Below are positions 1,338 through 63,330 of a stretch of DNA of 64,000 bases, in pieces. Origin of the DNA: Malacoraja senta. Its lineage: Eukaryota. The translations under genes and the position numbers were made by a program. The stretch is from assembly GCA_038087875.1 (NCBI GenBank), contig CM075994.1, positions 2,110,001 to 2,174,000 on the forward strand, written 5' to 3'. Below the pieces are notes generated by a model, which saw only the letters and a list, made by a program, of their open reading frames with translations, was not told where the DNA came from and did not search any database. Each line of letters starts with the position of its first letter. The first letter of the stretch is position 1.

Positions 1338-3081
1338 AATAGACAATAGGTGCAGGAGTTGGCCATTCGGCCCTTCGAGCCAGCACCGCCTTTCAATGTG
1401 ATCATGGCTGATCATCCCCAATCAGTACCCCGTTCCTGCCTTCTCCCCATATCACCTGACTCCGCTATCTGTAAGAGCCCTATCTAGCTCTCCCTTGAAA
1501 GTGTCCAGAGAACCGGCCTCCTCCACCCTCTGAGGCAGAGAATTCCACAGACTCACAACTCTCTGTGTGAAAAAGTGTTTCCTTATCTCCGTTCTAAATG
1601 GCTTGCCCCTTATTCTTAAACAGTGTACAGGGACCTAATGAGGGTACAGTGGCCCCTGGTTCTGGACTCCCCCAACATCGGGAACATGTTTCCTGCCTCT
1701 AGCTTGTCCAACCCTTAATAATCTTATATGTTTCAATAAGATCTCCTCTCATCCTTCTTAACTCCAGAGTATACAAGCCCAGCCGCTCCATTCTCGCAGC
1801 ATATGACCCGCCATCCTGGGAATTAACCTTGTAAATCTACTCTGCACTCCCTCAATAGCAATAATGTCCTTCCTCAAATTAGGGGACCAAAACTGCACAG
1901 AATACTTCAGGTGTGGTCTCATTAAGACCCTGTACAACCGAAGAAGGACCTCTTTGGTCCTATACTCAACCTCTTGTTATGAAGGCCAACATGCCATTCC
2001 AGGGCTCTCGCTTAACTTTTTTCCCCTGTTGCCAGCCGGGCAACCTTGGCAGCTTTTTAAGTTGCCAAATGACAGTTTAGGTGGTCATTTAAGATGGCTT
2101 GCATGACGTGTGCGATAATGTGCTCGGACGAAGTGCGTAGTTACCAGTCGGAATTATACTCAATGAAGCAATCACATATTATTTCTGCTTCAAAAAAAGT
2201 CACAAACTAAACATATTCACCAATCAAGACATGATATATCCCACAATGACATGCAGCAAAATTATAATACAATATGTCAACTCTTTTTACACATTGCAAT
2301 GAATGCAATTTCTATTAGTTCTTTCCACTTCTAAACAAAAATGTGTTTGGATTATTCCAGCGTATGATCAAACTGTGTCAATAAATCCTGGACCATGGTA
2401 ACATAAATGCGTACGTATAGTTGTGAATGTTACTCATTAAATAACTGCAGTACTGATATTCCATATTAAGAGCATTGATTTGCCGTTAAAATGAATTCTG
2501 TAATAACGTGTCAACGGCAGCAGTGACAATCGAACACTGCGGTTTTAATGTTTCACGTGTTCACAATTTAATTAATCCATCTTTATGGATTAAAACAAAT
2601 AATAACATTGGGAATTAAAACACATTTGATTGCATTCCGTTATCAAACATAGTAAATGTTCGCTCTGAAGACATTTCCAGCACAATAGGGTCAGGGAGGG
2701 GGGTGTGTGTGAATCAGTGCGGGGTGGATAGATGGCGGAGGGGGGGGGGGGGAGTTAGAAGGCAGTCGGTGCAGAATGGATGGATTGAGGCAGGTGAATT
2801 AGTACGTGTTGGTTGGAGTAGGTAAAATTGTGAGGGGGAGAGCACCGGGGATGTCAGTGGTGTTGAATGGGGGGGTTCAGTATGGGATGGAGGGGGTGTG
2901 GCAGGAGAATCAATGCGAGGTGGATAGGGTGATCAGCGCAGGATGAATAGATGGGGGGGGGTAGATGGGGAGGGGAGCACAGGGGATGTCAGTGAGGACT
3001 GAATAGAGGCGGGAATGGGGATCAGTGCGGGATGGAGTGGAGGGGTCCCAGGATTAAGGGAGGGGGTGGAGGGGGCGTACA

Positions 3082-3113
<32 letters not shown>

Positions 3114-4449
3114 GGGGAGCGAGGTGGGGAGGAAGGAAGGCCAGCACTCCTCGGACAACATCACATCGCCCCGCTGCCTTGATCGTTGGGAACTCCTCGC
3201 CACCGCCTCCCTCCTCCGCCAGCCAACTGCAAGGTGCGTGGCCGGGCGGTGCAGCTCAGAGATCCTATAGCTATAGGATCTTTGGTGCAGCTGCTTCTGA
3301 CGCAACGTTTCGTGTCGGCGGCTGTTGTGCGGGGCAAAGATACTAGGTGCGGGGTGAGGAAGGGTCGGAGCGAATGACAGGTCCCGCACAGCGGCAACGA
3401 CAGTGGGTTTACAAGTTGAGGCCCTTATTACGGGGGGCGGGAGGAGGAGATGGAGCCGCTGTCGCAGCTGCCGCTGTTTGGGATCCGACCCTTCCTCACC
3501 CCGCACCTAGTATCTTTGCCCCGCACGACAGCCGTCACCCCCGACACGAAACGTCACGTTCCTTTTCTCCAGAGATGCTGCCTGACCCGCGGAGTTACTC
3601 CAGTTTTTTGTGTCTATCTTCGGTACAAACCAGTATGTGGTTGCCAGGCCGGGCAAAATGACTCGGTGTTTTGGTTGCCCGGCGGCGCTTTGGGTGGTCA
3701 GTGGCACCCGGGCAACCGCTAATTTCGAGCCCTGCATTCGCTTTCTTCACTGCCTGCTGTACCTGCATACTTATTTTCATTGACTGATGAACAAGGACCC
3801 CCCAGATCCCGTTGTACTTCCCCTTTTCCCAACTTGACACCATTTAGATAATAATCTGCCTTTCTGTTTTTGCTACCAAAGTGGATAACCTCATATTTAT
3901 TCACATAAAACTGCATCTGCCATGCATCTACCCACTCACCCAACCTGTCCAAGTCACCCTGCATTCTCATAGCATCCTCCTCACAGTTCACACTGCCACC
4001 CAGCTTTGTGTCATCTGCAAAGTTGCTAATGTTACTTTGAATCCCTTCATCTAAACTATTGAAGTATATTGTAAATAGCTGCGGTCCCAGCACCGAGCCT
4101 TGCGATACCCCACTAGTCACTGCCTGCCATTCTGAAAGGGACCCGTTAATCCCTACTCTTTGTTTCCTGTCTGCCAACCAATTTTCTATCCATGTCAGCA
4201 TTCTACCCCCAATACCACGTGTTCTAATTTTGCCCACTTATCTCCTATGTGGGACCTTATCAAATGCTTTCTGAAAGTCCAGGTACACTACATCCACTGG
4301 CTCTCCCTTGTCCATTTTCCTAGTTACATCTCAAAAAATTCCAGAAGATTAGTCAAGCATGATTTCCCCTTCGTAAATCCATGCTGACTCAGACCGATCC
4401 TGTTACTGCTATCCAAATGTGCCGCTATTTCATCTTTTATGATTGACTC
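1338..4449 (-). mobile_element. CR1 LINE 3' part (RT C-terminus and 3' UTR), split by a DNA transposon at 2000-3734
   Basis: ORF 3719-4237 with SGVSQGSVLGP and FADDTKL; ATTGTCTATT tail at about 1340. Confidence 0.9.
2000..3734. mobile_element. non-autonomous DNA transposon with CAGGGCTC/GAGCCCTG termini and 5-bp TSD CATTC
   Basis: interrupts the CR1 sequence ATGC-CATTC-GCTTTC; homologous copies at 22864-25440 and 35450-35786. Confidence 0.85.
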
Positions 4450-7416: not shown

Positions 7417-7487
7417 GTAAGTGAGTCTCAATGTTTTTGTTGTTGCAGCATTAGAATTTAGCATTAGAATTTTTCTTTTAAAATTAA

Positions 7488-7837
7488 CTAGACCAATTGG
7501 GACCCTTTGGGTCCCGTCCCCTCAACGCGCGGTTGCGGGGGGGGGGGGGTGCCTGCGGCGTCACACACACACACTAACCACCCCCCACACACACACACTA
7601 ACCACCCCCCTTGATATTGATATTATTCATTTGCTCCTTTTATCCCATCCCCGCCCTATCCACTCACGCATAGCCCCCAACTCGCAGGCGCATCTAGAGA
7701 GGGAGAGGGGGGGGGTAGAGGTAGAGAGAGAGGGGGCAGAGACTGAGAGGGGGGGGGGTTGACATCACTCGCAGCGCGTGGAAGAAAGGCGCCGTGCCCA
7801 GCAGAGCGAGTCCAGCCGAGTCTTTTGAATAATAACT
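7488..7837 (-). mobile_element. Helitron-like 3' terminus
   Basis: minus strand reads GGGACCC-AAA-GGGTCCC hairpin (7499-7515), 7 nt, then CTAG followed by T. Confidence 0.55.
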
Positions 7838-7875
<38 letters not shown>

Positions 7876-10800
7876 ACACACACACACGAACACACACACA
7901 CGAACACACACACGCGAACACACACACGCGAACACACACACACGCGAACACACACACCCGCGAACACACACACGCGCGAACACACACACGCGCGAACACA
8001 CACACGCGCGAACACACACACGCGCGAACACACACACGCGCGAACACACACACGCGCGAACACACACGCGCGAACACACACACGCGCGAACACACACACG
8101 CACGAACACACACACGCACGAACACACACACGCACGAACACACACACACACGAACACACACACACACGAACACACTCACGAACACACACACGAACACACA
8201 CACACACGAACACACACACACACGAACACACACACACACGAACACACACACACACGAGCACACACACACGAGAACACACACACACGAGCACACACACACG
8301 AGAACACACACACACGAGAACACACACACACGAGAACACACACACACGAGAACACACACACACGAGAACACACACACACGAGAACACACACACACGAGAA
8401 CACACACACACGAGAACACACACACGCACACGAACACACACACGCACACGAACACACACACGCACACGAACACACACACGCACACGAACACACACACGCA
8501 CACGAACACACACACGCACACGAGAACACACACACGCACACGAGAACACACACACGCACACGAGAACACACACACGCACACGAGAACACACACACGCACA
8601 CGAGAACACACACACGCACACGAGAACACACACACGCACACGAGAACACACACGCACACGAGAACACACACGCACACGAGAACACACACGCACACGAGAA
8701 CACACACACTCACACGAGAACACACACACACACACGAGAACACACACACACACACGAGAACACACACACACACACGAGAACACACACACACACACGAGAA
8801 CACACACACACACACGAGAACACACACACACACACGAGAACACACACACACACACGAGAACACACACACACACACGAGAACACACACACACACACGAGAA
8901 CACACACACACACACGAGAACACACACACACACACGAGAACACACACACACACACGAGAACACACACACACACACGAGAACACACACACACACACGAGAA
9001 CACACACACACACACGAGAACACACACACACACACGAGAACACACACACACACACGAGAACACACACACACACACGAGAACACACACACACACACGAGAA
9101 CACACACACACACACACACGAGAACACACACACACACACACACGAGAACACACACACACACACACGAGAACACACACACACACACACACGAGAACACACA
9201 CACACACACACACGAGAACACACACACACACACACACGAGAACACACACACACACACACGAGAACACACACACACACACACGAGAACACACACACACACA
9301 CACGAGAACACACACACACACGAGAACACACGCACACACACACACGAGAACACACGCACACACACACACGAGAACACACGCACACACACACACGAGAACA
9401 CACGCACACACACACACGAGAACACACGCACACACACACACGAGAACACACGCACACACACACACGAGAACACACACACACACACACACGAGAACACACA
9501 CACACACACACACGAGAACACACACACACACACACACACGAGAACACACACACACACACACACACACGAGAACACACACACACACACACACACACACGAG
9601 AACACACACACACACACACACACACGAGAACACACACACACACACACACACACGAGAACACACACACACACACACACACACGAGAACACACACACACACA
9701 CACACGAGAACACACACACACACACACACGAGAACACACACACACACACACGAGAACACACACACACACACACGAGAACACACACACACACACACGAGAA
9801 CACACACACACACACACGAGAACACACACACACACACACGAGAACACACACACACACGAGAACACACACACACACGAGAACACACACACACACACGAGAA
9901 CACACACACACACACGAGAACACACACACGAGAACACACACACACACACGAGAACACACACACACACACACACGAGAACACACACACACACACACACGAG
10001 AACACACACACACACACACGAGAACACACACACACACACACGAGAACACACACACACGAACACACACACGCGAACACACACACGCGCGAACACACACACG
10101 CGAACACACACACGTGCGAACACACACACCCGCGAACACACACACGCGCGAACACACACACGCGCGAACACACACACGCGCGAACACACACACGCGCGAA
10201 CACACACACGCGCGAACACACACGCGCGAACACACACACGCACGAACACACACACGCACGAACACACACACGCACGAACACACACACGCACGAACACACA
10301 CACGCACGAACACACACACACACGAACACACACACACACGAACACACACACACACGAACACACACACACACGAACACACACACACACGAACACACACACA
10401 CGAGAACACACACGCACGAGAACACACACACACGAGAACACACACGCACGAGAACACACACGCACGAGAACACACACGCACGAGAACACACACGCACGAG
10501 AACACACACGCACGAGAACACACACGCACGAGAACACACACGCACGAGAACACACACGCACGAGAACACACACGCACGAGAACACACACGCACGAGAACA
10601 CACAAACACACACACGCACGAGAACACACACGCACGAGAACACACACGCACGAGAACACACACACGCACACGAGAACACACACACGCACACGAGAACACA
10701 CACACGCACACGAGAACACACACACGCACACGAGAACACACACACGCACACGAGAACACACACACGCACACGAGAACACACACGCACACGAGAACACACA

Positions 10801-13800
10801 CGCACACGAGAACACACACTCACACGAGAACACACACTCACACGAGAACACACACACTCACACGAGAACACACAAACACACACGAGAACACACACACACA
10901 CACGAGAACACACACACACACACGAGAACACACACACACACACGAGAACACACACACACACGAGAACACACACACACACGAGAACACACACACACACACG
11001 AGAACACACACACACACACGAGAACACACACACACACACGAGAACACACACACACACACACGAGAACACACGCACACACACACGAGAACACACGCACACA
11101 CACACGAGAACACACGCACACACACACGAGAACACACGCACACACACACGAGAACACACGCACACACACACGAGAACACACGCACACACACACGAGAACA
11201 CACGCACACACACACACGAGAACACACACACACACGAGAACACACGCACACACACACACGAGAACACACGCACACACACACACGAGAACACACGCACACA
11301 CACACACGAGAACACACGCACACACACACACGAGAACACACGCACACACACACACGAGAACACACGCACACACACACACGAGAACACACGCACACACACA
11401 CACGAGAACACACGCACACACACACACGAGAACACACGCACACACACACACGAGAACACACGCACACACACACACGAGAACACACGCACACACACACACG
11501 AGAACACACGCACACACACACACGAGAACACACGCACACACACACACGAGAACACACGCACACACACACACGAGAACACACGCACACACACACACGAGAA
11601 CACACGCACACACACACACGAGAACACACACACACACACACACGAGAACACACACACACACACACACACGAGAACACACACACACACACACACGAGAACA
11701 CACACACACACACACACACACGAGAACACACACACACACACACACACACACGAGAACACACACACACACACACACACGAGAACACACACACACACACGAG
11801 AACACACACACACACGAGAACACACACACACACACACGAGAACACACACACACACACACGAGAACACACACACACACACACGAGAACACACACACACACA
11901 CACACGAGAACACACACACACACACACGAGAACACACGCACACACACACACGAGAACACACGCACACACACACACGAGAACACACGCACACACACACACG
12001 AGAACACACGCACACACACACACGAGAACACACACACACACACACACACACGAGAACACACACACACACACACACACACGAGAACACACGCACACACACA
12101 CACGAGAACACACACACACACACACACGAGAACACACACACACACACACACACACGAGAACACACACACACACACACGAGAACACACACACACACACGAG
12201 AACACACACACACACACGAGAACACACACACACACACACACGAGAACACACACACACACACACACGAGAACACACACACACACACACGAGAACACACACA
12301 CACACACACGAGAACACACACACACACACACGAGAACACACACACACACACACGAGAACACACACACACACACACACGAACACACACACACACGAGCACA
12401 CACGCACGAGAACACACACGCACGAGAACACACACGCACGAGAACACACACGCACGAGAACACACACGCACGAGAACACACACGCACGAGAACACACACG
12501 CACGAGAACACACACGCACGAGAACACACACACGCACACACGCACACGAGAACACACACACGCACACGAGAACACACACACGCACACGAGAACACACACA
12601 CGCACACGAGAACACACACACGCACACGAGAACACACACACGCACACGAGAACACACACACGCACACGAGAACACACACACGCACACGAGAACACACACG
12701 CACACGAGAACACACACGCACACGAGAACACACACGCACACGAGAACACACACACACACACGAGAACACACACACACACACGAGAACACACACACACACA
12801 CGAGAACACACACACACACACGAGAACACACACACACACACGAGAACACACACACACACACGAGAACACACACACACACACGAGAACACACACACACACG
12901 AGAACACACACACACACACGAGAACACACACACACACACACGAGAACACACACACACACACACGAGAACACACACACACACACACGAGAACACACACACA
13001 CACACACGAGAACACACACACACACACACGAGAACACACACACACACGAGAACGCACACACACACACGAGAACACACGCACACACACACACGAGAACACA
13101 CGCACACACACACGAGAACACACGCACACACACACACGAGAACACACGCACACACACACACGAGAACACACGCACACACACACACGAGAACACACGCACA
13201 CACACACACGAGAACACACGCACACACACACACGAGAACACACGCACACACACACACGAGAACACACGCACACACACACACGAGAACACACGCACACACA
13301 CACACGAGAACACACGCACACACACACACGAGAACACACGCACACACACACACGAGAACACACGCACACACACACACGAGAACACACGCACACACACACA
13401 CGAGAACACACGCACACACACACACGAGAACACACGCACACACACACACGAGAACACACCCACACACACACACGAGAACACACCCACACACACACACGAG
13501 AACACACCCACACACACACACGAGAACACACACACACACACACACGAGAACACACACACACACACACACGAGAACACACACACACACACACACACACGAG
13601 AACACACACACACACACACACACACGAGAACACACACACACACACACACACGAGAACACACACACACACACACGAGAACACACACACACACACACGAGAA
13701 CACACACACACACACACACGAGAACACACACACACACACACACGAGAACACACACACACACACACACGAGAACACACACACACACACACACGAGAACACA

Positions 13801-14876
13801 CACACACACACACACGAGAACACACACACACACACACACGAGAACACACACACACACACACGAGAACACACACACACACACACGAGAACACACACACACA
13901 CACACGAGAACACACACACACACACACGAGAACACACACACACACACACGAGAACACACACACACACGAGAACACACACACACACGAGAACACACACACA
14001 CACACGAGAACACACACACACACACGAGAACACACACACACACACGAGAACACACACACACACACGAGAACACACACACACACACGAGAACACACACACA
14101 CACACGAGAACACACACACACACACACACGAGAACACACACACACACACACACGAGAACACACACACACACACGAGAACACACACACACACACACGAGAA
14201 CACACACACACACACACGAGAACACACACACACACACACACACACACGAGAACACACACACACACGAGAACACACACACACACACGAGAACACACACACA
14301 CACACGAGAACACACACACACACACGAGAACACACACACACACACACACGAGAACACACACACACACACACACGAGAACACACACACACACACACACGAG
14401 AACACACACACACACACACACGAGAACACACACACACACACACACGAGAACACACACACACACACACGAGAACACACACACACACACACGAGAACACACA
14501 CACACACACGAGAACACACACACACACACGAGAACACACCACACACACGAGAACACACACACACACACACGAGAACACACACACACACACGAGAACACAC
14601 ACACACACACGAGAACACACACACACACGAGAACACACACACACACACACACACACACGAGAACACACACACACACACACACACACACGAGAACACACAC
14701 ACACACACACACGAGAACACACACACACACACACACACGAGAAACACACACACACACACACACACGAGAACACACACACACACACACACACACGAGAACA
14801 CACACACACACACACACACACGAGAACACACACACACACACACACACGAGAACACACACACACACACACACACGAG

Positions 14877-14920
<44 letters not shown>

Positions 14921-15287
14921 AACACACACACACACACACACACACGAGAACACACACACACACACACACACGAGGACACACACACACACACACACACGAG
15001 AACACACACACACACACACACACGAGAACACACACACACACACACACACGAGAACAAACACACCACACACACACACGAGAACAAACACACACACACACAC
15101 GAGAACAAACACACACACACACACGAGAACAAACACACACACACACACTCGAGAACAAACACACACACACACACTCGAGAACAAACACACACACACACAC
15201 TCGAACAAACACACACACACACACGAGAACAAACACACACACACACACGAGAACACACACACACACACGAAAACACACACACGAGAA

Positions 15288-15322
<35 letters not shown>

Positions 15323-15326
15323 ACAA

Positions 15327-15359
<33 letters not shown>

Positions 15360-15568
15360 CACACCACACACACACACACACATACACACACACACACACA
15401 CAAGAACACACACACACAAGAACAAACACACACACACACAAGAACAAACACACACACACACACACACACACAAGAACAAACACACACACACACACACACA
15501 CACAAGAACAAACACACACACACACACACACAAGAACAAACACACACACACACACACACACACAAGAA

Positions 15569-15607
<39 letters not shown>

Positions 15608-15640
15608 GAACAAACACACACACAAAACAAGAACAAACAC
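7838..15640. repeat. ~7.8-kb compound (CA)n satellite with GAA/GCGCGAA/GAGAA/AAGAACAAA interruptions, in SERAC1 intron 5
   Basis: directly visible; almost no T on the + strand. Confidence 0.97.
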
Positions 15641-16139
15641 AAATAAAGCCTTACTGTTGATGAAATGCAGTGAATACGCGATAATCCCCAATATTTCCAA
15701 TGTTGATATCTGTCTTGACCATTTTGGGTGTTTTTTACGGGTAAGAAAGTACGCATTACGTGTATTGACAGTGTATGCCGGAAGCTGCCATGTCCTCCAC
15801 ATGGATTGAGCTGCTCCGTGCGTCACACCCTTTGACCCGCTGACCTTGCGTGCAACCCCCCTATAGAAAGAGGGCAATGAATGCACTGTCAAGTAAGGTG
15901 CGTAGAAGACATGTCAATTGGTAGCAAAGTTATGCATTCTTGTAGTCTTACATGGGTGTGACCGCACATAAAAAACATTTTTTTCAGCAAAATGGCACCG
16001 TGTAAAAATACTGATTTCCTCAGCAAAATACTGATTTTCAGGTACTAGAATACTGAAATGCTCTGACAAAACTTGGCAACTCTGGTTTACTCTATATAAG
16101 TGACCATCCTTAGATTGTCACACGTACTATGTTTTACAG

Positions 16140-22863: not shown

Positions 22864-25440
22864 CAGGGCTCTCACTTAACTTATTTTCCCTGTTGCCAGC
22901 CGGGCAACCTGGGCAGCTTTTTAGGTTGCCAAATGACAGTTTAGGTGGTCATTTAAGACGGCTTGCATGACGCGTGCGATAATGTGCTCGGATGAAGTGC
23001 GTAGTTACCAGTTGGAATTATGCTCAATGAAGTATCTCAACTCTTTTTACACAATGCAATTAATGCAATTTCTATTATTTCTTTCCACTTCCAAACAAAA
23101 ATGTGGTTGGATTATTCAGCATATGATCAACGTGTCAATAAATCCTGGACCATGATAACATATATGCTTAACCATGCACACTACAGATTGATGCAAGCAT
23201 GTTTTCTGTGAAGGACCGAAAATTATGACATGGCCATAGCATGGGTCATTATTGCTATTGGTACAGAAACACTCTCGCTTCCCACATAATTTATCCACAA
23301 CAAAATATACAGGTTGCAAGGAATTTTCTAAAGGCATTTAATGATAATAGCAGTTAAAACAGGTACCATCTGACAGGTTAAACATTACACTAACTAACAA
23401 GAGATGGCCAAAGGACATAAATGCAGCAAATGTTCTTTTGGTAATATATTTAAAGGTGTCAAGACGCCACATTATCGGGCATTCAGATTAGATGTATGTG
23501 TTGTGAACAGCAATGAAGATACCCAGTTTGTAAGATTTAAAAAAAATTGTTGATAAACGCTGTTTCCATCATTCCCACTCAGAATTAACGTTAAAATTTC
23601 AACTGAAATATCTCCTGACCAAATTTGTGATGTATATGACTGACTAGAAGTAAAACCTGGATAAATCCAACATATAGTTGTGAATGTTGCTCATTAAATA
23701 ACTATAGTACTGATACTACATATTAAGAGCATTGATTTGCCGTTAAAATGAATTCTGTAATAACGTGTCAACGGTAGCAGTGACAATCGAACACTGCGGC
23801 TTTAATGTTTTACGTGTTCACAATTTAATTAATCCATCTTTATGGATTAAAACAAATAACATTGTGAGTTAAAACACATTTGATTGCATTCCGTTATCAA
23901 ACATAGTCAATGTTCGCTCTGAAGACATTTCAAGCACAATAGGGTCGGGGGGGGGATGTGAAAGTGCGGGATGGATAGATGGCGGTGGGGGGGGGGGGGG
24001 GGTTGAGAAGGCAATCGGTGCGGAATTAATGGATTGAGGCAGGGGAATTAGTGCGTGTTGGTTGGAGTAGGTAAAATTGTGAGGAGAGAGCGCGGGGGAT
24101 GACGGGTTGAATGGGGGGGATCAGTACAGGATGAATGGGGGTAGACAAAAATGCTGGAGAAACTCAGCAGGTGAGGCGGCATCTATGGAGCGAAGGAAAT
24201 GGGCAACGTTTCGGGTCGAGACCCTTCTTCAGACTGATCCCCCCATTCTTCTTGAATGGGGGGCGATCAGTACAGGATGGATGGGGGGGGATCAGCGCAG
24301 GACGAATGGGCGGATCAGTACAGGATGAATGGGGGGGGACAGTACAGTGTGGATCGGATGGTCTGTGCAGGATGAATGGGTGGATCACTACAGGATGAAT
24401 GGAGGGATAAGTACAGGGTGGATGGGGGGATCACTACAGGATGAATGAGGGAATCAGTACAGGATGAAGGGAATCATTAAAAGATGAATGGGAAGATCAG
24501 TACAGGATGGATGGGGGGAGCAGTGCATGATGGATGGGGGGAGCAGTGCATGATGGATGGGGGGAGCAGTGCAGGATGAAGGGGGGGGGCAGTGCAGGAT
24601 GGATGGGAGGGGGGGGTCAGTACAGATGAATTGGGGGACCAGTGTAGGATTGATGGGGAGTGGCAGGAGAATAGATGGAGGGGGGGGGATGTAGATGAAG
24701 AAGGGAGCACACGGGATGTCAGTGAGGACTGAATAGAGGCAGGAATGGGGATCAGTGCGGGATGGAGAGGAGGGGTCTCAGGATAAGGGGGGGTGGAGGG
24801 AGGCGTACAAGAGAGAGAGAGAGAGAGAAGAAGGGGCAGAGGAGGTGGGAAGGAAGGTCAGTGCTCCTCGGACAACACCGGCATCATCCCTGCCTTGACC
24901 GTCCCTGTCTACCGCCAAGTGCCGCCACTAAAGGGGGAGGCAGTTGGGAACTCCTCGCCACCGCCTCCCCTCCTCCGCCAACCAACAGGAAGGTGCGGGG
25001 CCGAGTGGTGCAGGTGCTTCAGACGGCGGAAGGCCTCTCCTTCCTCCCTCCTCCCGGCCTCGCCGTGCGGGAGGGTTTGTGTTTGAAAGCGCCGTTGGCA
25101 GAGTGGCAGGCAGCGGCCGCTATCATGGTGGGCGGGTTGCAGGAGGAGGAGGAGATGGAGCCGCTGCTGCTGCTGCTGTGCGGGGCCCGTCATTCGCTCC
25201 GACCCTCCGTCACAGCACACTTAGCATCTTTCCCACGCATTACAGCCGTCGCCAACACAAAACGTCACGTTCCTTTTCTCCAGAGATGCTGCGTGACCCG
25301 CTGAGTTACTCCAGTTTTTTGTGTCTATCTTCGATATAAACCAGTATCTGCAGTGCCAAGCCGGGCAAAATGACTCGGCGTTTAGGTTGCCCGGCGGCAC
25401 TTTGGGTGGTCATTGGCACCGGGGCAACCGTTAATTTCTG
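22864..25440. mobile_element. second, longer copy of the CAGGGCTC DNA transposon, containing a G-rich minisatellite (about 24100-24680)
   Basis: colinear homology to 2000-3734; right TIR partly deleted; TSD TTTCA/CTTCA. Confidence 0.85.
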
Positions 25441-31199: not shown

Positions 31200-31300
31200 G
31201 CATGGTTGGCTGCGGATTGTCCCAGTCTAAGGATATTAACAGTGGAGTACGACACTCAGCTCAGTGACTGGAGATCCAAGTGTCCTGTGGAGAATGAGAG
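31200..31300 (+). CDS. SERAC1: SERAC1 exon 13, [34 protein letters not shown]
   Basis: cctcag/gtacat, 101 nt. Confidence 0.96.
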
Positions 31301-35304: not shown

Positions 35305-35448
35305 ATTCGCCGTCTTTGACAGAACTGAATGATAATTTCACCAAGTTGATAAAGGAACAAGAAGTTAACGTTCTGAGCTTTGGAGAAAAGCTACCAACAA
35401 ACATTGGCAGTATGATCAAACTACACGTGGTACCTCTCAATTCAGCAG
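35305..35448 (+). CDS. SERAC1: SERAC1 exon 16, DSPSLTELNDNF...LPTNIGSMIKLHVVPLNSA; non-canonical GC donor
   Basis: ttgtag acceptor; 144 nt; homology and frame require the junction after TCAGCAG, which is followed by GCAGGA. Confidence 0.9.
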
Positions 35449-35449
35449 G

Positions 35450-35786
35450 CAGGACTCTCACTTAACTTTTTTTCTCTGTTTCTAGCCGGGCAGCTTTTTA
35501 AGTTGCCAAATGACAGTTTAGGTGGTCATTTAAGACGGCTTGCATGACGCGTGCGATAATGTGCTCCAGTCGGAATTATGCTCAATGAAGCATTTACATA
35601 TTATTTCTGCTTCAAATAAAGTCACAAACTAAACATATTCACCAATCAAGACATGATAAATACCACAATGACATGCTGTAAAATTATAATACAGTATCTC
35701 AACTCTTTTTACATGTTGCAATGAATGCAATTTCTATTATTTCCACTTCCCAACAAAAATGTGGTTGGATTATTCAGCGTATGGTC
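35450..35786. mobile_element. third (left-end only) copy of the CAGGGCTC DNA transposon, starting at intron-16 position +2
   Basis: CAGGACTCTCACTTAAC...GTTGCCAAATGACAGTTTAGGTGGTC aligns to 2000 and 22864. Confidence 0.88.
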
Positions 35787-36230
35787 AACCTCGGTGAGAC
35801 CAAGCGCAGGCTTGGCGATCGCTTCGCACAAAACCTCCACTCATCGCAATAACCAACCTGATCTCCCGGTGGATCAGCACTTCAACTCCCCCTCCCATTC
35901 CGAATCCAACCTTTCTGTCCTGGGCCTCCTCCATGGCCAGAGTGAGGCCCATCGCAAATTGGAGGAACTGCACCTCATATTTAGCTTGGGTAGTTTACAC
36001 CCCAGCGGTATGAACATTGGCTTCTCCAATTTCAGGTAGTCCTTGCTTTCTCCCTTCTTCCCCTCCCATTCCTAGCTCTCCCACAGCCTACTGTCTCAGC
36101 CTCTTTCTTTCTTTTTCCGCCCCCACCCCGGACATCAGTCTGAAGAAGGGTCTCGACCCGAAATGTCTCCTATTCCTTCGCTTAATAGATGTTGCCTCAG
36201 ATTTTCACCAGCTTTTTTGTCCTCCACCCA
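35787..36230 (+). mobile_element. Penelope-like element 3' fragment (GIY-YIG tail plus hammerhead-like motif); others at about 37697-37970 and an RT fragment at about 40060-40400
   Basis: GETKRRLGDRFA, PVDQHFNSPSHS, KLEELHLIFSLGSLHPSGMN; homologous to 46545-47375. Confidence 0.75.
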
Positions 36231-38581
36231 TTCACACAACTTCTGTTATCCCACTTTCCTCACCCGCTCCCTACAGATTAGGGGCAATTTTACAAAGACA
36301 AGTTAACCTACAAAGCCAATGCATCTTTGGGATGTGGAAGGAAACCCGCACGCTGCAGGGAGAATGTGCAAATTCAACACAGACAGTGCCTGAGGACAGG
36401 ATCGAACACAGATCTCTGGCGTGTGAGGCAGCAAGTCTACCAGTTGTGCCATTATATTTTGTTTTCCAACACACAAAAAATTATACATTGATAACTTTGG
36501 TTACTAAAAAAAAGAAACTATTCATTTTCAGTCTTAAATCTCTAAGTGACGCTATGTCCCCCTTTACAGCTACTATATGTTTTAATTCAGTTCAAGACTA
36601 TGGGGCAGTACATTGGCCATAAAGTTGCTGCCTAAAAGTCCCAGAGACCCGGAATTGATCCTGAATATGGGTGCTGTCTGTATAGTTTGCTCCTTTTCCC
36701 TTTGATCGCATGGGTTTTCTCCGGGTGCTCTTGTTTCCTTCCACATTCCAAATTTTTCAGACCCAAGCCAAAACGTAATATTTTCCCCTTGTCCAGAGAT
36801 TCTCTGACCTGTTGAGTTATTCCAGCTTTTTGTGTCTTATCTTCAGTTTAAACTAGCATCTGCAGTTCCTTTCTACAGACGCAATACTATACGATAGAAC
36901 TTTATTAATCCCAGGAGGGAAATTGTGTGTGTGTGCATATTATACACACACACACATATATATATTTATAGTTATATATTCATATATAAATATACACTGT
37001 TGTTTTCTCGTTTATAACATTGTTTACAGAGTAGTATGTTTACATATTCTGTTGTGCTGCTGCAAGTAAGGATTTCATTGTTCTAACTGGGACGTGAGAG
37101 AATAAAACACTCTTGACTCACGTCACTAATGTGTGGGATAGAACTAGTGTACGGGTGATCGGTGCTGGGGCGTGGACTCGATGGGCCGAAGGGCCTGTTT
37201 CCACGCTGTATCTTTAAATTAAACTAAAAACACTAAAACCAGAGGGAGTCTAAAGAAGGGTCTCTACCCGAAACGTCACCCAATTTCTTCTATCCAGGGA
37301 TGCTGGCTGCTCCATGGAGTTCCCTCGCACAATTAAAGCATGGAATAGTCTTCACCCTACCATAGTTACCCAACCAGATGCAACTAAATTTAAGGTAGCT
37401 CTTTTTTCCCCAAGAACCCTTTTTTGCTTAAGTTCAAGTCAAGAGTCAAAAGAGTTTTATTGTCATGTGTCCCAGATAGGACAATGAAATTCTTGTTTGC
37501 TGCAGCACAACAGAATATGTAAACATAATACAGAACAGGAGATAAAAGTTCAGTGTGTGTATATACCATAGACCATATATATACACAATAAATAAACAGA
37601 TAAAGTGCAATAGGCTGTTATTGTTCAGAGTTTGGAGTTTGGTGGTGGACCCTCCAACACCTCCTGTTTAAATTCCATTTGGAATATTTTTGGAGAACCA
37701 GGAAACCAAGAAGCAACCTGACCTCCCGGTGGCTCAGCACTTCAACTTCCCCTCCCATTCCGTATCCGACCTCTCTGTCATGTGCCTCCTCCATGGCCAG
37801 AGTGAGCACCACCGGAAATTGGAGGAACAGCACCTCATATTCCGCTTGGGGAGTCTGCATCCTGGTGGCATGAACATTGAATTCTCTCAATTCTGTTAGC
37901 CCTTGCTGTCTCCTCCCCTTCCCAGCTCTCCCTCAGCTCTCGGGCTCCTCCTCCTTTTTCCTTTCTTCTTAGAACGAAATGGGGATATGAAAACTTTGGA
38001 TTAAAACAAAATATATTTATTTGAGGTGAATTGTGTTCAACTAAGTGGATCAAGTGCGTGGGAATAATAGTACATTTGGGGAGACATGAGAATCAAAAAC
38101 AGCATGCATTGATTTATTTTGTCATTTCAAAGTTGACAAGTGTTTTATTGATGTTGTACACAGGGGTTCAGTGAATTGGACTTGTAGAGGCCATGATTGT
38201 TGGAAGCTGCTTGAAAAAACCCCGGCCGGGAACAGATGACCTCAGGAAGAGTGGAGGATTTCACTAATTTCAAGAATCTAAGCATTTCTCCCCCCCCCCC
38301 CTCCCCTTCCCACCTACTAGTTCCACTGTTCTCATCCTTGTTTCCCTGTCGTTAGCACATCTTCCCCAGCCAACAATGGGCCATCATGAACTCCACCCTT
38401 CATGAGGTCATCTGTTGCTTGTCCTGCTTTGTTCTGACCTTCTGTATATTTCAGTTTGAAGAAGGGTTCCAACCCAAAACGTCACATATTTCTTTTCTCC
38501 AGAGATGCTGCCTGCTCTGCTGAGACTCCAGCATTTTGTGTCCATGATGTGTTTTTAAACATGTTTATTCATTACCAAGGT

Positions 38582-39251
38582 TGTGAATGCCTGGATCTAA
38601 TCTTACCTCAAGTCTGGTTCAGTAAAAGAAACTGAGTGGAACACTGAAGTCCAAACCCATCTTTATTTGTATACACACTGCAGGGAAGGTCTCGAAACCA
38701 CTCATGCGAGCCCACATTAGCCTCGTGCAAACAGAACAGACGCACCCAAACAAATTACACACACTTTTATACCCCTAAACGAAGGCGGGGACACTAAGTA
38801 CGATGGGGAGGCCCCCCCTAAATGCCAATCACTACTTAAAGATAAGAAAACACATTAAGAAGCACTTACTCTGTTAAATTACAAACAATGTATACAAAAA
38901 CCTTTTAGCAGCTAGATACTAAGTGTAAACAGATAATCCGCTATCCACAGGCTTAGGTTCAGCATCTGTTCAACAGAACCTAGACCTAATGGCATCAGAG
39001 AAGCCACAAGAACAGAAACCACCTGGAGTCTTGCAGAAACCTAGACGTAATGGCACCAAGGTGTCACAAAAGCAGAAGCTACTTGAAGTTATTCCGGAAA
39101 TCCAGACTCGATGGTACCAACTAGGTGGACATGGACCTCTTGCACCTTGTGTTTTGTCACCTCCGCCAGCTCGACCTTACTCACAGGCACTGTCAGCTAT
39201 TTTGCAAAGCACCATCCATCAACCATTTCCCAAAGTATCCATATTCTTACA
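38582..39251 (-). mobile_element. solo-LTR-like insertion (TG...CA) with 10-12 bp TSD
   Basis: flanks CATTACCAAGGT (38570-38581) and CATTATCAAGGT (39252-39263); minus-strand TATAAAAG 38764-38771 and AATAAA 38662-38667. Confidence 0.65.
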
Positions 39252-39326
39252 CATTATCAAGGTTATTTGTAGCTACTCTGTAATGCGTATAACTTTAACA
39301 CTTAATTTTTTTTAATTCTTTTTCAG

Positions 39327-39463
39327 ATTTGGGGATCGGGGATTTTATTCCACTGGACGTTAATCATCTGGATATTTGCAAACCCAGAAACAGAGACTCC
39401 TTCATATATCAGCACAGTTTGAAATTTATAAAAGATGCTCTGGCACAAGAACTCAAAAGTTGA
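39327..39463 (+). CDS. SERAC1: SERAC1 last exon, [49 protein letters not shown]
   Basis: tttcag acceptor, TGA at 39461-39463; DLGIGD..P.DVNHL.ICKP motif. Confidence 0.97.
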
Positions 39464-39620
39464 ATCACTTCCTTATTCGGACCACTCCAAAGTGCCAAAG
39501 TTTTGACATGTAAATGGATCCTACCTTCCATGGTGCATTCTAGTATAATTTCTTCCTTTAAACAAAGCTTTGAAAATATCAAGAATGATAACATTCAAGG
39601 ATTAATTTAATATTGTATAT

Positions 39621-40999: not shown

Positions 41000-43900
41000 C
41001 CTTCCAAGGGGTTCTTCCAAAGATTCCAAGGGGAGTAAGGGGCGACCGTGGCTGACAAGGGTCGTCAGGGACAGTATAAAAATAAAAGAGAAGTACAATG
41101 TAGCAAAGATGAGCGGGAAGCAAGGGGATTGGGTAATGTTTAAAGAGCAACAGAAGGCTAACTGAAAAGACAATATGGGGAGAAAAGATGAGGTATGAAG
41201 GTAAGCTAGCCAAGAATATAAAGAAGGATAGTAAAAGCCTCTTTAGGTATGTGAAGAGGAAAAAAATAGTTAAAACCAAAATTGGACCCTTGAAGACCGA
41301 AAAAGGTGAATTTATTATGGGGAACAAGGAAATGGCATTTGAGTTGAACAGGTACTTTGTTCCGTCTTCACTAAGGAGGACACAAACAATCTTCCTGATA
41401 TAGTAGTGGCCAGAGGATCTGGGGTGACGGAGGAACTGAAGGAAATCCACATTAGGCAGGAAATGGTGTTGGGTAGACTGATGGGACTGAAGGCTGATAA
41501 ATCACCAGGGCCTGATGGTCTGCATCCCAGGGTACTTAATGAAGTGGTTCTAGAAATCGTGGATGCATTGGTGATAATTTTCCAATGTTCTATAGACTCA
41601 GGATCAGTTCCTGTGGATTGGAGGGTAGCTAAAGTTATCCCACTTTTTAAGAAACGCGGGAGAGAGAAAACTGAATTATAGACCAGTTAGCCTGACATCG
41701 GTGGTGGGGAAGATGCTGGAGTCAATTATAATAGATGAAATAGCCGCACATTTGGATAGCAGTAACAGGATCAGTCCGAGTCAGCATGGATTTACGAAGG
41801 GGAAATCATGCTTGACTAATCTTCTGGAATTTTTTGAGGATGTAACTAGGAAAATGGACGAGGGAGAGCCAGTGGATGTAGTGCACCTGGACTTTTAGAA
41901 AGCATTTGATAAGGTCCCATATGTAGATGACAGGTGCATGTACCTTTAACATAGTGACCTCACCACCACTAACCACTCCCCACATCACTAGTATAATTAC
42001 AACCTTCCCACCCAGTGCTCTCTCTCTGGTTCCGGTGACAGACCACGAACAGCTAGGGCAGTAAAGTATGTGTATCATGAATAAACAGTAGTAAAGACAC
42101 AGTGTGTTATGACTCCTCTTTACATGGTGTCAGTGTCGTACCTTTGCGCCTCCAGTTTACCGGGTTTTCTTTCCTTTGACCCGTTTCCCCATTGTGTTTT
42201 TTAATCTCCCGTGCCATGGCTACTTCTTGCCGTAAACCCGATATGCTGGTCTTCGACTCGGACATTGCCCATCGGTGGGGTGTCTTTAGACGTGACTTCC
42301 AACACTACGTCACGATCGCCCATCGTGCTGCCACCCCTGCTACACGGGCTTCTCTGCTTCTCAACCTGGCTGGTCCCGATGCCCTAGAACGGGCTGAGTC
42401 GTTTGTCTATGGTGCAAGTGAAGATGCTCGGGACCCGGTATGTCTTATGGCTAAGTTTACCGCAATGTGCGACATCCCCACTAACTGCATTCTAGAGCGG
42501 TTTAAAATGTTCACCCGGCGTCAGATCTCTGGAGAGTCAATCGATAACTATATTGCCGCGTTGCGTCACCTGGCATTGCAGCCTGGACACGCTGACCCCC
42601 GATCAACTGACCTGGGACATTTTAGTGTATGGTCTTCAAGATGAAAAACTAAGGGCTGAACTTCTGCGGAAGCACGACCTGTCTTTAGCCGAGGCTCTGC
42701 ACGCCTCCCGCATGGCTGAGGCTGTCGCCTCGGCGGTGTCGTCTGCTGATCATGACATTAACATTGCCAGTGTTGCTGGCCGCCGGCGGAACGCTGGCCC
42801 GCAACGGCAACGGGAGTCCCCTGCACCCGGGGGTAGCAGCCCACAGCGGTGCCCCAACTGCAACTTTACCTCCCATCAGTCTAATGTGTGCCCTGCACTG
42901 GGGAAAAACGTGCAACATTTGCAGGAAATTGAACCATTTCTCTGCCGCCTGTCGCTCCCGTGGGAAGCCAATTCCTGCTCCTCGCCGAATGTTAAACAAC
43001 CTTGCTCGAGCTGATAGCGTGCTTGGTTCACAGTTCCAGCCTGATGAACTCCCTTTGTCTGATACAAGTTCCTCCCAGGGGGAGACCAGCATATTTTCGG
43101 TGTTGGATGCACCTGCACTGATAACAGACCCTTCGGTTCGCGTTAATGTCAACGTCTCGACCTTCAACGCCAAACTCGGCATGGGGGCCGTGACCAATGT
43201 AATGTCAATAAGCCTCTTCAAGAAGATAAGGACTGATGAGAAAGTTACTCCCGATAACTCCCTGTTGCATGCCTACGGGGGAAGCGTGCTCGTTCCAGTG
43301 GGGAGGGCTACCCTGCACTGCAAGGTACTGCATGCCTCTCGGCCCCTCACTTTTTATCTACTGGATACTAACAACATCACCCTGTTGGGTGCTCGGGCAT
43401 GCCAGGACCTCGGCTTGTTCTCTTTCCACCGTGATATCCACCAGGTGCGGACCCTTATGAACCCCCTGCGCGAATACCCTGACCGTTTTGATGACAAGCT
43501 GGGCAAGCTGCCCTGCAGCTACAAGATCGTTGTCGACTTCGGTGTTGAACCTATGATCCGTCCACCACACCGCGTCTCCTTCGCCATGAAGGACAAGGTG
43601 GAGTTAATGCTGCTCAACATGGTTACCATGGGCATCCTGAAGGAGGTGAGCGAACCCACCCGGTGGGTCTCAACCATAGTTGTTGCTGCGAAAAAGGACA
43701 AAAGTGAAATTCGCATTTGCATCAACCCCAAAGACCTGATGGTGCTTAACGTCAACATTGTGCCTTCCCAGCAGATGCAGTCCCTGGTCAGCAACACTGC
43801 CAAGGATCCTGCCCTGCAGCAGCTTGCCGACGTCATCAGGCAGGGCTGGCCAGACCGTCGTTCATCCTTGCCGCCTGGAGTCGTGCCCAATTCCTGGTCC

Positions 43901-46545
43901 GTGACGAGCTCGTGCTGCACGACGGCGTGGTCGTGAAGGGACACAAGGTCGTCGTGCCTGCTGCCCTGCGGGACCAATACTTTCAGACCGCCAACCCGCG
44001 GTCACCCTGGGGCCGAGGCCACCCTGTCTCAGGCCCAGAGTTTGTTCTACTGGCCCAGCATGGCCCAAGACATCCGGGAGAGGGTCTCCGCTTGCTCTGT
44101 CTGCAATAGCCTCGCTCCCCATCAGCAACGGCAGCCGCTTCTGCAACAGCCTGCCCCCGAGCTGCCCTGGATGACCGTCGCCGCTGACATTTTTGATTGG
44201 CGTGGCAAGCATTTCCTGGTTCTTGTGGACTCGTACTCCAGCTGGTTCGAGGTTGACCAGCTGCACTCCCTCACCTCTTCGGCCGTTATCGGGAGGCTGC
44301 GCCGCCACTTCGGAACCTTTGGCACCCCGGCAAATCTTCAATTGGACAACGGCAGCCAGTTCTCGAGTGTCAAATTTCGGAGTTTCGCTGCCAGCTGGAA
44401 CTTCCGACACTATACCAGCAGCCCGGAGTACCCTCAAAGCAACGGCTTGGCAGAGCGCGCTGTCCGCAGTGCTAAGGACTTGCTGGAACATTGTAGACTG
44501 TCCCATTCTGACTTTTACCTGGCCCTCCTCAACCTTCGAAACATTTGCCGCGACACTGCCTTGGGCTCCCCAGCACAACGGCTGATGTCTCGCACTACGA
44601 GACCTCCGATCCCGGTGACCCAGCGGTCCCTCGTTCCCTCTGTTCTCCAGCCCGCTGCTGTCCAGGAGCTCATTGCCCTCAAACAAGATATCCAAAAGCG
44701 CTCCCACGACAAGTCCTGCCGTCCCCTCCCACCTCTGTTCCCTGGCCAAGTCGTCCGGATGCAGTCCCCCTCCGGTCACCCCAGGCTTGCCATCGTCGTC
44801 GGTACTGCTGGTTCGCCGCGGTCCTATCTAGTCGACCATGACGGTACTATTTACCGCCGGTCCCACCAACATCTGCGGTTTGTTAACGAGCCCCCACCAC
44901 CGCCTGCAGACCCCTTTTCCCCCCCACTGTCTGCCACGTTGCCTGCCCCTCCAGCCTGTCCTCCGTCGCCTGCCCGTCTTCCCGCTACTGCTCCTGCTTC
45001 CCCTGCTCCGTCTCCGTTTTCTCTTTCTCCTCCCGATTCCCCGGTTCTCTCACCCGCGCCTGCTCCTACTCATGTTCCTCCTGCAGATGGGGGAGATGGC
45101 GAGCTGCGTAACCGGTCCGGGCGGGTGGTCAGGCCGCCTGTCCGTTATGGTGATTTTGCTTAACTGTTTGCTCACCTGCTCGTAGCGTATGAGACGTGGT
45201 CGCCCTGTCACTACGGTATTGCTTTTTATTTCCAAGGGGAAGGATGTAGATGACATGTGCATGTACCTTTAACATAGTGACCTCACCACCACTAACCACT
45301 CCCCACATCACTAGTATAATTACAACCTTCCCACCCAGAGCTCTCTCTCTGATTCCGTTGACAGACCACGAACAGCTAGGGCAGTAAAGTATGTGTATCA
45401 TGAATAAACAGTAGTAAAGACACAGTGTGTTATGACTCCTCTTTACACCACATGGGAGATTAGTGGGCAAAATTAGGGCACATGGTATTGGGGGTAGAGT
45501 GCTGACGGATAGAAAATTGGTTGGCAGACAGGAAACAAAGAGTAGAGATTAATAGGTCCCTTTCAGAATGGCAGGCAGTGACAAGTGAGGTACCGCAAGG
45601 CCCAGTGCTGGGACCGCAGCTATTTACAATATACATCAATGATTTGGATGAAGGGATTCAAAGTAACAGCAAATTTGCAGATGACATAAAGCTGGGTGGC
45701 AGTGTGAACTGTGAGGAGGATGCTATGAGATTGCAGGGTGACTTGGACAGGTTGGGGGAGTGGGCAGATGAAGTTTAATGTGAATAAATGTGAGGTTATC
45801 CACTTTGGTATCAAAAACAGGAAGGCAGATTACTATCTAAATGGCGTCAAGTTGGGAAAAGGGGAAGTACAACGTGATCTGGGGGTCCTTGTTCATCTGT
45901 CTATGAAAGTAAACATGCAGGTATAGCAGGCAATGAAGAAAGCGAATGGCATGTTGGCCTTTATAACAAGAGGAGTCGAGTATAGGAGCAAAGAGGTGCT
46001 TCTGCAGTTGTACAGGGCCCTAGTGAGACCACACCTGGTGTATCGTGTGCAGTTTTGGTCCCCTAATTTGAGGAAGGACATTCTTGCTATTGAGGGAGCG
46101 CAGCGTAGGTTTACTAGGTTAATTCACGGGATGGCGGGATTCATATGCTGAGAGAATGGAGCGGCTGGGCTTGTACACTGTGGAGTTTAGAAGGATGAGA
46201 GGGGATCTTATTGAAGCATATAAGATTGTTAAGGGTTTTGACACGCTAGAGGCAGGAAACATGTTCCTGATGTTGGGGGAGTCCAGAACCAGGGGCCACA
46301 GTTTAAGAATAAGGGGTAAGCCATTTAGTACGGAGACGAGGAAACACTTTTTCTCAGAGAGTTGAGTGTGGAATTCTCTGCCTCAGAGGGCGGTGGAGGC
46401 AGGTTCTCTGGATACTTTCAAGAGAGAGCTAGATAGGGCTCTTAGAGTCAGGGGATATGGGGAGAAGGCAGGAACGGGTGATGATCACATTGAACGGTGG
46501 TGCTGGCTCGAAGGGCCGAATGGCCTACTCCTGCACCTATTGTCT
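41000..46545 (+). mobile_element. CR1 LINE ORF2 3' half, split by a Gypsy element
   Basis: [37 protein letters not shown] | PQGPVLGP, FADD; frameshifted. Confidence 0.9.
41922..45447 (+). mobile_element. Ty3/Gypsy LTR retrotransposon, internally deleted; LTRs 41922-42124 and 45245-45447
   Basis: 203-bp TG...CA LTRs with 4 differences; PBS TGGTGTCAG; PPT AAGGGGAAGGA; TSD CCATA/CCACA; gag with CCHC knuckles, degenerate protease, RT start, DDE integrase (ORF 44042-45163). Confidence 0.95.
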
Positions 46546-47375
46546 ATCCCATCCCCCCACTCACAACAAGTGCAGAGTCCCCCTAGTCCTCACCTTTCAT
46601 CCCACCAGCGGTCACATACAAGTGATCCTCCGTCAGTTTCGCCACCTCCAACGTGACCCCACCACTCGCCACATCTTCCCATCTCCCCCCATGTCTGCCT
46701 TCCGCAAAGACCGCTCCCTCCGTAACTCCCTTGTCAATTCTTCCCTTCCCTCCCGTACCACCCCCTCCCCGGGTACTTTCCCTTGCAACTGCAAGAGATG
46801 CAACACTTGTCCCTTCACCTCCCCCCTCGATTCCATTCAAGGACCCAGTCGTTCCAGGTGCGACAGAGGTTCACCTGCATCTCCTCCAACCTCATCTATT
46901 GCATCCGCTGCTCTAGATGTCAGCTGATCTACATCGGTGAGACCAAGCGGAAGCTTGGCGATCGTTTCGCCGAACACCTCCGGTCGGTCCGCAATAACCT
47001 ACCTGACCTCCCGGTGGCTCAGCACCTCAACTCCCATTCCGTATCTGACCTCTCTGTCCTGGGTCTCCTCCATGGCCACAGCGAGCAACACCGGAAATTG
47101 GAGGAAATGCACCTCATATTGGGCAGTCTACACCCTGGGGGCATGAACATTGAATTCTCCCAACTCTGCTAGCCCTTGCTGTCTCCTCCCCTTCATCAGC
47201 CCTCTGGTTGTCTCCTCCCCTCCCCCAGCCCTCGGGCTCCTCCTCCGCCTTTTTTCCTTTCTTCTCCCCACCCCCTATCAGTCTGAAGAAGGGTTTCGGC
47301 CCGAAACGTTGCCTATTTCCTTCGCTCCATAGATGCTGCTGCACCCGCTGAGTTCCTCCAGCATTTTTGTGTACC
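46545..47375 (+). mobile_element. Penelope-like retroelement 3' end, GIY-YIG endonuclease
   Basis: CKRCNTC; FTCISSNLIYCIRCSRCQLIYIGETKRKLGDRFAEH; CTGAAGA-A-GGG..CCC-GAAAC motif at 47283-47310. Confidence 0.88.
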
Positions 47376-62720: not shown

Positions 62721-63330
62721 AACAGGCCCTTGGGGGTTGTCTGACCAACATCACCCACTCAGCAGGTGTGACGCCCTGGTCCCTCGTCTGCCCACTGTTC
62801 TATCTCCCTTTCAAACCCGTTCCTTTTCCATCTAGTTGGCCCAAGGCTTCTCTTACTGCATCTTCACTTGCCATTAGTGTCAAGTGTTCACTGCTTTGGT
62901 ACAAAACAAAAGATGTTTTGTTGCGCCTGATAGATAGGAAACATGAAAGGGATGGTTCTCGGGGTTGCTGCTTAATATAGAACAGAACAGGAGAAAGGCC
63001 CTTCAGCCCACAATGTCTGTCCAGCATGATGTCAAGTTAAACTAATCTCTGTCTGCATGTGATCCATGTCCCTACATTCCCTGCATATCTATAAGCCTCT
63101 TAGATGCCACTATTATATGTGCTTCCACCACCACCCCTTGACAGTACTTTCCAATCACCCATCAACCACTGCAAAAACAAAAGCTTGCCCTCCACATCTC
63201 CTTTAATCTTTCTCCCCTCACAGTAAAGCTATGGTCTCCAGTCTTTGATATTTTCATCCTGGTGAGAGGTGGGGGGGGGGGGGTCCTACTGTCCACACTA
63301 TCTGTGCAACATGATTTTATGTACTTCTAT

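Follow-up and report, generated by a model that had tools for sequence, protein, structure and literature searches.

The SERAC1 locus

The window analysed here, a stretch of 64,000 nucleotides from Malacoraja senta, contains on its forward strand the SERAC1 gene, which was recognised because an exon adjacent to the one discussed below, used as query, retrieved 42 proteins at E<=1e-10, nearly all of them named SERAC1. Fourteen coding exons combine to an open frame of 605 amino acids with 12 GT donors and a single GC donor, the latter in the last intron. The 12 other mapped introns among these exons are of the GT-AG type, and an additional SERAC1 exon (1160-1196) has a GT donor, too. A preliminary description of this DNA had called all other exons intact, which holds for the exons named here. 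The frame differs at 9 of 605 positions from the Amblyraja protein, at 11 from Leucoraja, at 21 from Rhinoraja, and at 54-71 from other rays, which points to a skate as the host. A search of the PDB returned armadillo-repeat matches only. The end of the gene is organised as follows, with a slash marking exon ends:

35305..35448, forward strand: penultimate coding exon of SERAC1, 144 nt, phase 1 at its end, 48 of 48 amino acids the same as in Amblyraja SERAC1
35446..35456, forward strand: GC donor CAG/GCAGGACT, positions -3 to +1 being host bases and +2 onward transposon bases
35449..39326, forward strand: last intron of SERAC1, GC-AG, 3878 nt, skipped by contigs X17 record 11 and X20 record 24
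35463..35465, forward strand: TAA inside the transposon, stopping any read-through (...SAGRTLT, then stop)
39327..39464, forward strand: last coding exon of SERAC1, 46 codons plus stop, protein identical to Amblyraja

The penultimate exon, which we take to be exon 16 in the human numbering, occurs once in the genome and is covered with 0 differences by contigs from three probable RNA runs. It ends in TCA GCA G (TCAGCAG), followed by G at 35449 and C at 35450, and the intron thus starts with GCAGGACT; the acceptor TTTTCAG/ATT lies at 39326/39327, and the last exon opens with ATT TGG GGA at 39327. This exon end and the resulting site CAG/GCAGGA had been proposed previously and are borne out by the letters as well as by a phase test, in which each in-phase GT and GC of the stretch 35395-35800 was tried: 35448 is the sole donor that leads to the full-length protein (...VVPLNSA-DLGIGD...ELKS). 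According to the same proposal, nearby GT dinucleotides in the exon have the wrong phase; of the sites tried, 35406 (GC) and 35409 (GT) are in frame but would delete 14 and 13 amino acids, respectively. All donors downstream of 35448, up to 35800, take in the TAA at 35463-35465. The motif across the last-exon junction is kept in 68 of the 81 SERAC1 proteins fetched, the other 13 being shorter or alternative models. The last exon presumably carries the catalytic histidine, as a predicted role.

Several side observations concern the same gene. The in-frame upstream site at 35406 reads TTG/GCAGTA, and the Heterodontus isoform P0017 is spliced at the corresponding position and lacks 14 amino acids. 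A short-period CA-rich satellite of about 8 kb (7730-15650) occupies most of an 8.7-kb SERAC1 intron. An inverted copy of 83 nt at 30001-30081 matches, at 91.6%, the final part of the SERAC1 exon at 31200-31300 and the start of the next intron; this copy lies in the intron just upstream and could base-pair with exon 31200-31300 in the pre-mRNA.

A hAT5-like transposon begins at the second intron base

The last intron contains a copy of a transposon family that is represented three times in the window:

2000..3734, forward strand: complete family copy, CATTC duplicated on both sides
22864..25438, forward strand: third family copy in the window, right terminus frayed
35450..37716, forward strand: non-autonomous hAT5-like DNA transposon, 2267 bp of a composite subfamily of about 2.8 kb, last 450-500 bp (approximately) and right terminus missing
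35445..35449, forward strand: GCAGG, expected left copy of a 5-bp target-site duplication (last four exon bases and intron +1), as judged from the 5-bp duplications of the family
35782..36220, forward strand: Penelope-like/SINE-like segment inside the transposon, common to the subfamily copies, 75% like window 46925-47370
37711..37970, forward strand: Penelope-like fragment at the break-off point of the transposon copy, 95-98% to the best other copies

The bases after G 35449 read CAGGACTCTCACTTAAC, starting at 35450. Alignment with the copies at 2000 and 22864 places the first base of the element at 35450, and the same holds against 38 of the 38 other loci checked, many of which have unrelated flanks, while 25 of the 38 have the same or a nearly identical flank and are not independent. 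The proposal that the element lies between intron +1 and +2 is thereby confirmed. Only its terminus had been noted, however, and the insert in fact extends over 35450-37716 (2267 bp), a region collinear with the loci L136, L137, and L138 at 86-89%. Two other delimitations were discarded: a 375-bp stub, which was overturned by the collinearity of these nearest relatives with 35450-37716, and an element start at 35446 followed by a later doubling of CAGG, since SA-D is conserved at the exon end and a dead GG stage would be required. Compared with the majority of four relatives, the SERAC1 copy differs at 68 of 2160 sites (3.1%), and it carries several private deletions.

Complete copies of the family have the terminal inverted repeats CAGGGCTC...GAGCCCTG, of which the SERAC1 copy retains the left one only. 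Target-site duplications were surveyed at 20 fetched loci, 17 with both ends and 3 without a pair. Among the 17 complete copies, 13 are flanked by exact 5-bp duplications (12 independent cases, as two share flanks), two by 6-bp duplications, one by a 4/5 match, and one by none. An 8-bp duplication, as in other hAT elements, was therefore rejected as the rule for this family, and GCAGG is the expected duplication at SERAC1 because those of the family are mostly 5 bp long. Within the subfamily of about 2.8 kb, a composite with captured retroelement pieces, L136, L137, and L145 have 5-bp duplications and L143 has one of 8 bp, and 6 of 10 right ends show no exact duplication; the complete members are L136 (2813 bp, CATAC twice) and L137 (3019 bp, CGCAC twice). 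Transposase remains were found in L189, where positions 798-8447 (7.65 kb) are bounded by both family ends and contain broken frames that match DUF4371 and Dimer_Tnp_hAT above cut-off; it is the one locus among 30 hAT-domain loci examined in which a family end is present.

Families of hAT elements with 5-bp duplications have been named hAT5 (PMC12730594, citing Repbase Reports 2007). With its 5-bp duplications, terminal inverted repeats, and transposase remains the SERAC1 element family appears hAT5-like, an assignment by these features and not by a tree. The likeness to the group as presented in PMC12730594 consists in the hAT transposase of one family member and in the mostly 5-bp duplications, whereas some copies of the SERAC1 element family differ from it by duplications of 6 or 8 bp.

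Genome-wide, at least 2109 exact left ends of the family exist. The three copies at 2000-3734, 22864-25438, and 35450-37716 all lie on the forward strand in introns of one gene, as compared with a genome-wide density of about one per 0.9 Mb for exact left ends, and may reflect local hopping. Many subfamily copies, at the loci L002-L004, L014-L033, and L035-L040, have one common left flank ending in ACACCTTG, so the element seems to have been amplified within a larger repeat there, and inverted nested element ends (palindromic double copies) occur in L072 and L054/L055. The L189 region (798-8447) also has a LINE-like frame nested within it and is flanked by a 6-bp repeat; together with the 8-bp duplication of L143, this repeat suggests that duplication length may vary in the family.

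At its other end the SERAC1 copy is incomplete. Neither its right end nor a second GCAGG, both of which had been reported as not visible, is present in the intron or elsewhere in the window, and at 37716 the transposon sequence gives way to the Penelope-like fragment. The similarity of this fragment to its best other copies (95-98%), compared with 92-94% between subfamily copies, weakly hints that the right end may have been lost later than the insertion. As the second copy of the duplication is missing, a plain insertion is indistinguishable from an insertion plus a deletion. The internal segment at 35782..36220, which we assume to be Penelope-derived, resembles a region of the window (46925-47370) containing a frame that matches GIY-YIG, and it holds a competing GT site, TCG/GTGAGA, at 35793.

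Use of the GC donor

The GC donor at 35448 likely works, as judged from selection on the gene and from RNA contigs of relatives, because the transposon copy has diverged by 3.1% yet the single-copy gene shows few private changes. Relative to Amblyraja, 9 amino acids are changed, 4 of them unique to the window, among 605, where approximately 43 changes would be expected under neutrality; the last 119 amino acids contain 0 private changes against 8.4 expected, and the last exon 0 against 3.3 (P about 0.04), all expectations being rough estimates from the 3.1% copy divergence with three quarters of changes taken as non-synonymous. The 14 residues that splicing at 35406 would remove are unchanged, as is the entire last exon.

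The junction 35448^39327, for which a check in RNA data had been suggested, is indeed present in contigs from 2 of the 4 probable RNA runs examined, both from relatives. In X17 record 11 and X20 record 24, a single contig covers 35303-35445 and resumes at 39324 with zero letters between; the offset of 35445/39324 equals 35448^39327 because CAG occurs on both sides. A contig of X18 reaches the same exon end, and among its pieces listed none bridges to the last exon; the contigs of X15, probably a DNA run, do not cover the exon. Word shares in further DNA runs were left out of account, as the repeat drives them. X20 differs from the window at 4 of 183, 0 of 143, and 7 of 268 positions plus 2 gaps and thus represents a relative, not the same species. 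These contigs fix the position of the junction but do not prove the use of GC: with an estimated neutral divergence of roughly 4-6% between the pair, the relatives have been separate for about as long as the element has been in place and may have retained GT. An intronic contig, X17 record 14, was considered as an orthologue of the SERAC1 copy and set aside as uninformative, as it equals the subfamily majority (12 substitutions and 19 gap letters versus 11 and 18).

With U1 from the same genome, the GC donor forms a duplex of -6.0 kcal/mol, which lies within the range of the GT donors of the gene (-3.2 to -10.1 kcal/mol, 4 of 12 pairing more weakly), although such energies leave out pseudouridine and the catalytic cost of a C at +2. 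The gene's weakest donor is AAA/GTAAAT at 27313 (-3.2 kcal/mol), a GT site that pairs less well than the GC one. The GT site at 35793 inside the element pairs more strongly (-8.3 kcal/mol) and could leak into a truncated product. According to PMC12805630, only 15-18% of +2T>C changes leave a working donor, and working GC donors mostly fit MAG/gcaagt. The SERAC1 site matches this consensus at -3 to +1, +3, and +5, but differs by G at +4 and A at +6 (-6.0 versus -9.3 kcal/mol for the consensus GC site). The similar CAG/GCAGGT is listed as a used cryptic GC donor of human ELN (PMC3167603, Table 1).

It is nevertheless conceivable that the GC site is poor or unused, that transcripts are spliced at 35406/35409 or read through, and that the gene is hypomorphic, the haplotype rare and defective, or the assembly in error. 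The deviations at +4 and +6 would fit such an explanation, as would the Heterodontus isoform P0017 spliced at the equivalent of 35406. However, an insertion with 3.1% divergence and several private deletions is old, unlike a fresh defective allele; the residues lost via 35406 and the last exon are unchanged, in line with the motif kept in 68 of 81 proteins; and a misjoin is unlikely to produce a collinear 2.27-kb copy that begins precisely with its first base. We consequently regard a poor or unused site, or an artefact, as very improbable.

The ancestral donor

The composition of the donor before the insertion is suggested by protein models of other species that appear to read through the exon end. 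The Stegostoma isoform ends with SAG-IV and a stop and the Callorhinchus isoform with SAG-IKISLNWV and a stop, which corresponds to ATH at intron positions +3 to +5 and hence to no G at +5. A model from the snake Candoia (SAG-LTF) has no ATH, so that ATH occurs in 2 of 3 read-through-like isoforms, all of which come from annotation and might represent alternative last exons. Among 8 cluster members no skate read-through isoform was found. In the ATH context the calculated duplex energy is -4.5 with GC and -7.2 with GT; the present site has -6.0. As the shark and chimaera isoforms suggest, the ancestral donor was likely a GT site of modest strength, because ATH at +3 to +5 pairs at only -4.5 with C at +2 while working GC donors are mostly near consensus. 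A plain T>C change in such a donor would likely have broken it, whereas the element supplied a G at +5.

Human SERAC1 has an intron at the same point. The variant c.1822_1828+10delins is listed as affecting a canonical splice site, with a predicted loss of the last 45 residues, and was homozygous in 6 of 14 patients (PMC5847115); where PMC4903158 and PMC12192223 mention it, the variant is only named. The variant locates the human intron at the corresponding point and shows its importance: the human counterpart causes MEGDHEL upon loss of this donor. The letters of the human donor at the last intron are not stated in the SERAC1 papers and supplements searched. The intron position is common to sharks and chimaera, whose isoforms diverge at SAG, and to human (last 45 amino acids), so no new intron position was created, as would be the case for an introner.

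These data also bear on the question whether the donor was GC already before the insertion, with the element merely swapping +2 onward for like bases. Glycine is encoded by GGT and GGC alike, so that the read-through isoforms cannot reveal +2, and some used GC sites lack a G at +5, for example AAG/GCAACT (PMC3167603). On the other hand, GC donors make up less than 1% of introns (PMC2490688; PMC12805630), two distant cartilaginous fishes have ATH at +3 to +5, which gives only -4.5 with C at +2, and the human splice site is classed as canonical (PMC5847115). An ancestral GC donor thus seems very unlikely to us.

Origin of the present donor

Taken together, we consider it probable that a hAT5-like transposon starting at +2 turned a likely GT donor, through its terminal CAGG, into CAG/GCAGGA, which is likely now spliced. 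The element starts at 35450. Its insertion would have occurred after ...GCAG/G with duplication of GCAGG, by which the old, T-led donor would have been moved about 2.8 kb downstream. The new site would have retained CAG/G and the A at +3 and gained the G at +5 from the element, and U1 could still have paired with it. Exon definition would have favoured this near site over an exon of about 2.9 kb, and the insertion may consequently have been tolerated and fixed. The right end and the old donor are missing today and the Penelope-like fragment lies at the break, which suggests that both were lost later. Splicing at 35448^39327 would then yield full-length SERAC1, as selection and the RNA of relatives indicate. 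The transposon-made conversion of GT to GC put forward in the preliminary description is thus supported by the element boundary, the duplications of the family, the sole full-length donor, selection, the junction in relatives, and the isoforms; for two steps in it, the use of the GC donor in this species and a GT at +2 immediately before the element arrived, the evidence is indirect and we infer them.

Alternatively, the element might have landed deeper in the intron, and an adjacent deletion driven by the transposase, or another deletion ending at the terminus, might have removed the old donor from +2. The GC donor would still be element-made, but the GCAGG duplication would never have existed. 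Rearrangement by transposon ends has precedents, as alternative transposition by Ac ends is known. The missing right end and second GCAGG agree with such a course, and ends of this family seem to be rearranged often (no exact duplication in 2 of 17 complete copies and at 6 of 10 right ends). It requires two events, however, and after a microhomology deletion between both CAGG motifs a single CAGG and a GG donor would remain, whereas two CAGG are present. We therefore deem a deletion unlikely, if somewhat less so than a site that is unused or was GC before, and favour direct insertion at +2.

Accident or process

Both ends of the element begin with CAGGG, and a GC site could therefore arise in either orientation. 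In the genome, 37 of 2109 exact left ends (1.75%) are located after AGG, compared with 1.56% by chance, and 36 right ends follow AGG. Targeting of splice donors by the element was thus rejected, the AGG-preceded ends being near chance. At 60 of the 73 sites (51 distinct flanks) no host exon was detected before the AGG-preceded ends in a scan of 35 upstream frames of >=30 amino acids, a weak test for short exons; domain matches in those 35 frames were to reverse transcriptase, endonuclease, and transposase. The locus L203 was dismissed as a second case, as its flank is a repeat and its match to NDUF_B5 (E 0.05) falls below the cut-off. Assuming 100,000-200,000 donors and 2,109-5,000 copies, 0.1-0.5 landings per genome are expected by chance. 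One case is what tolerance alone gives, and the SERAC1 insertion is a rare accident and not a targeted process.

A broader, rather doubtful possibility is that transposons ending in CAGGG are pre-adapted donor-repair kits in either orientation, which after AG/G write GCAGGG with a G at +5 and turn weak GT donors into fixed constitutive GC donors. They might then constitute a second route to GC-AG introns that recurs in cartilaginous fishes and other animals. If this were true, insertion could convert weak GT donors beyond the reach of point changes.

Relation to known systems

Conversions from GT to GC are common: in primates and rodents 298 such events stand against 40 reversals, and they have been attributed to drift in strong contexts or to selection for alternative splicing (PMC2490688, Churbanov et al. 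2008). As in these conversions and in the rescue of +2T>C changes (PMC12805630), an existing GT-AG intron at SERAC1 likely became GC-AG at the same position with the protein unchanged. The conversions described in PMC2490688 are, however, point changes in an already strong context, whereas the SERAC1 insertion exchanges everything from +2 on at once and likely provides a G at +5, which seems to have been absent from the old site. GC donors can thus arise by wholesale replacement of the intron start and not only by T>C in a strong context.

In introners, splice sites, often with GC, are assembled from the ends of the element and the duplications (Gozashti et al., 10.1101/2022.06.06.494994; PMC11282704). 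The SERAC1 element resembles them, as described there, in being a non-autonomous DNA transposon with terminal repeats, an expected target duplication, and a splice site that is part element and part host. Introners, in contrast, occur in many copies and form new introns in exons, while at SERAC1 the intron is ancestral, the acceptor belongs to the host, and no second genic case was found in the flanks scanned. Human genes likewise contain GC 5' splice sites derived from transposons, in exons of MIR, Alu, and LTR origin (Kralovicova et al. 2011, PMC3167603). The likeness is a GC donor within transposon sequence, but the exons or donors compiled there come from MIR, Alu, or LTR elements, whereas in SERAC1 a constitutive ancestral exon keeps its end and only +2 onward derives from a DNA transposon terminus.

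In maize, the hAT-type elements Ds and Ds1 are spliced from transcripts, and donors in their end regions soften the effect of insertion. The donors of Ds lie inside the element as cryptic GT sites, and splicing is usually imprecise. Both systems involve donors provided by hAT-type ends, but at SERAC1 the original exon boundary is restored exactly. The literature searched, which omits most subscription papers, contained no case of an existing vertebrate donor whose bases from +2 on had been replaced by the end of a DNA transposon. As GT to GC conversion and transposon-derived splice sites are already known, SERAC1 is a one-off case of a known idea and not a new mechanism, and its reach, with one locus and an unchanged protein, is modest unless it recurs. 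It nonetheless provides a natural case in which an insertion at a highly constrained place, donor +1/+2, survives in a single-copy gene, and it shows for annotation that a repeat adjoining an exon need not signal a broken gene.

Neighbouring sequences

Downstream of SERAC1, positions 42180-45180 contain an LTR-type retroelement with broken gag/integrase-like frames, as recognised by eye from the translations. Further on, a GC-rich open frame at 62089-62832 reads MFAAVEQGPVVCSDSNILCLSWKGRVPKSEK... and resembles a first coding exon, presumably of a TULP4-like gene.
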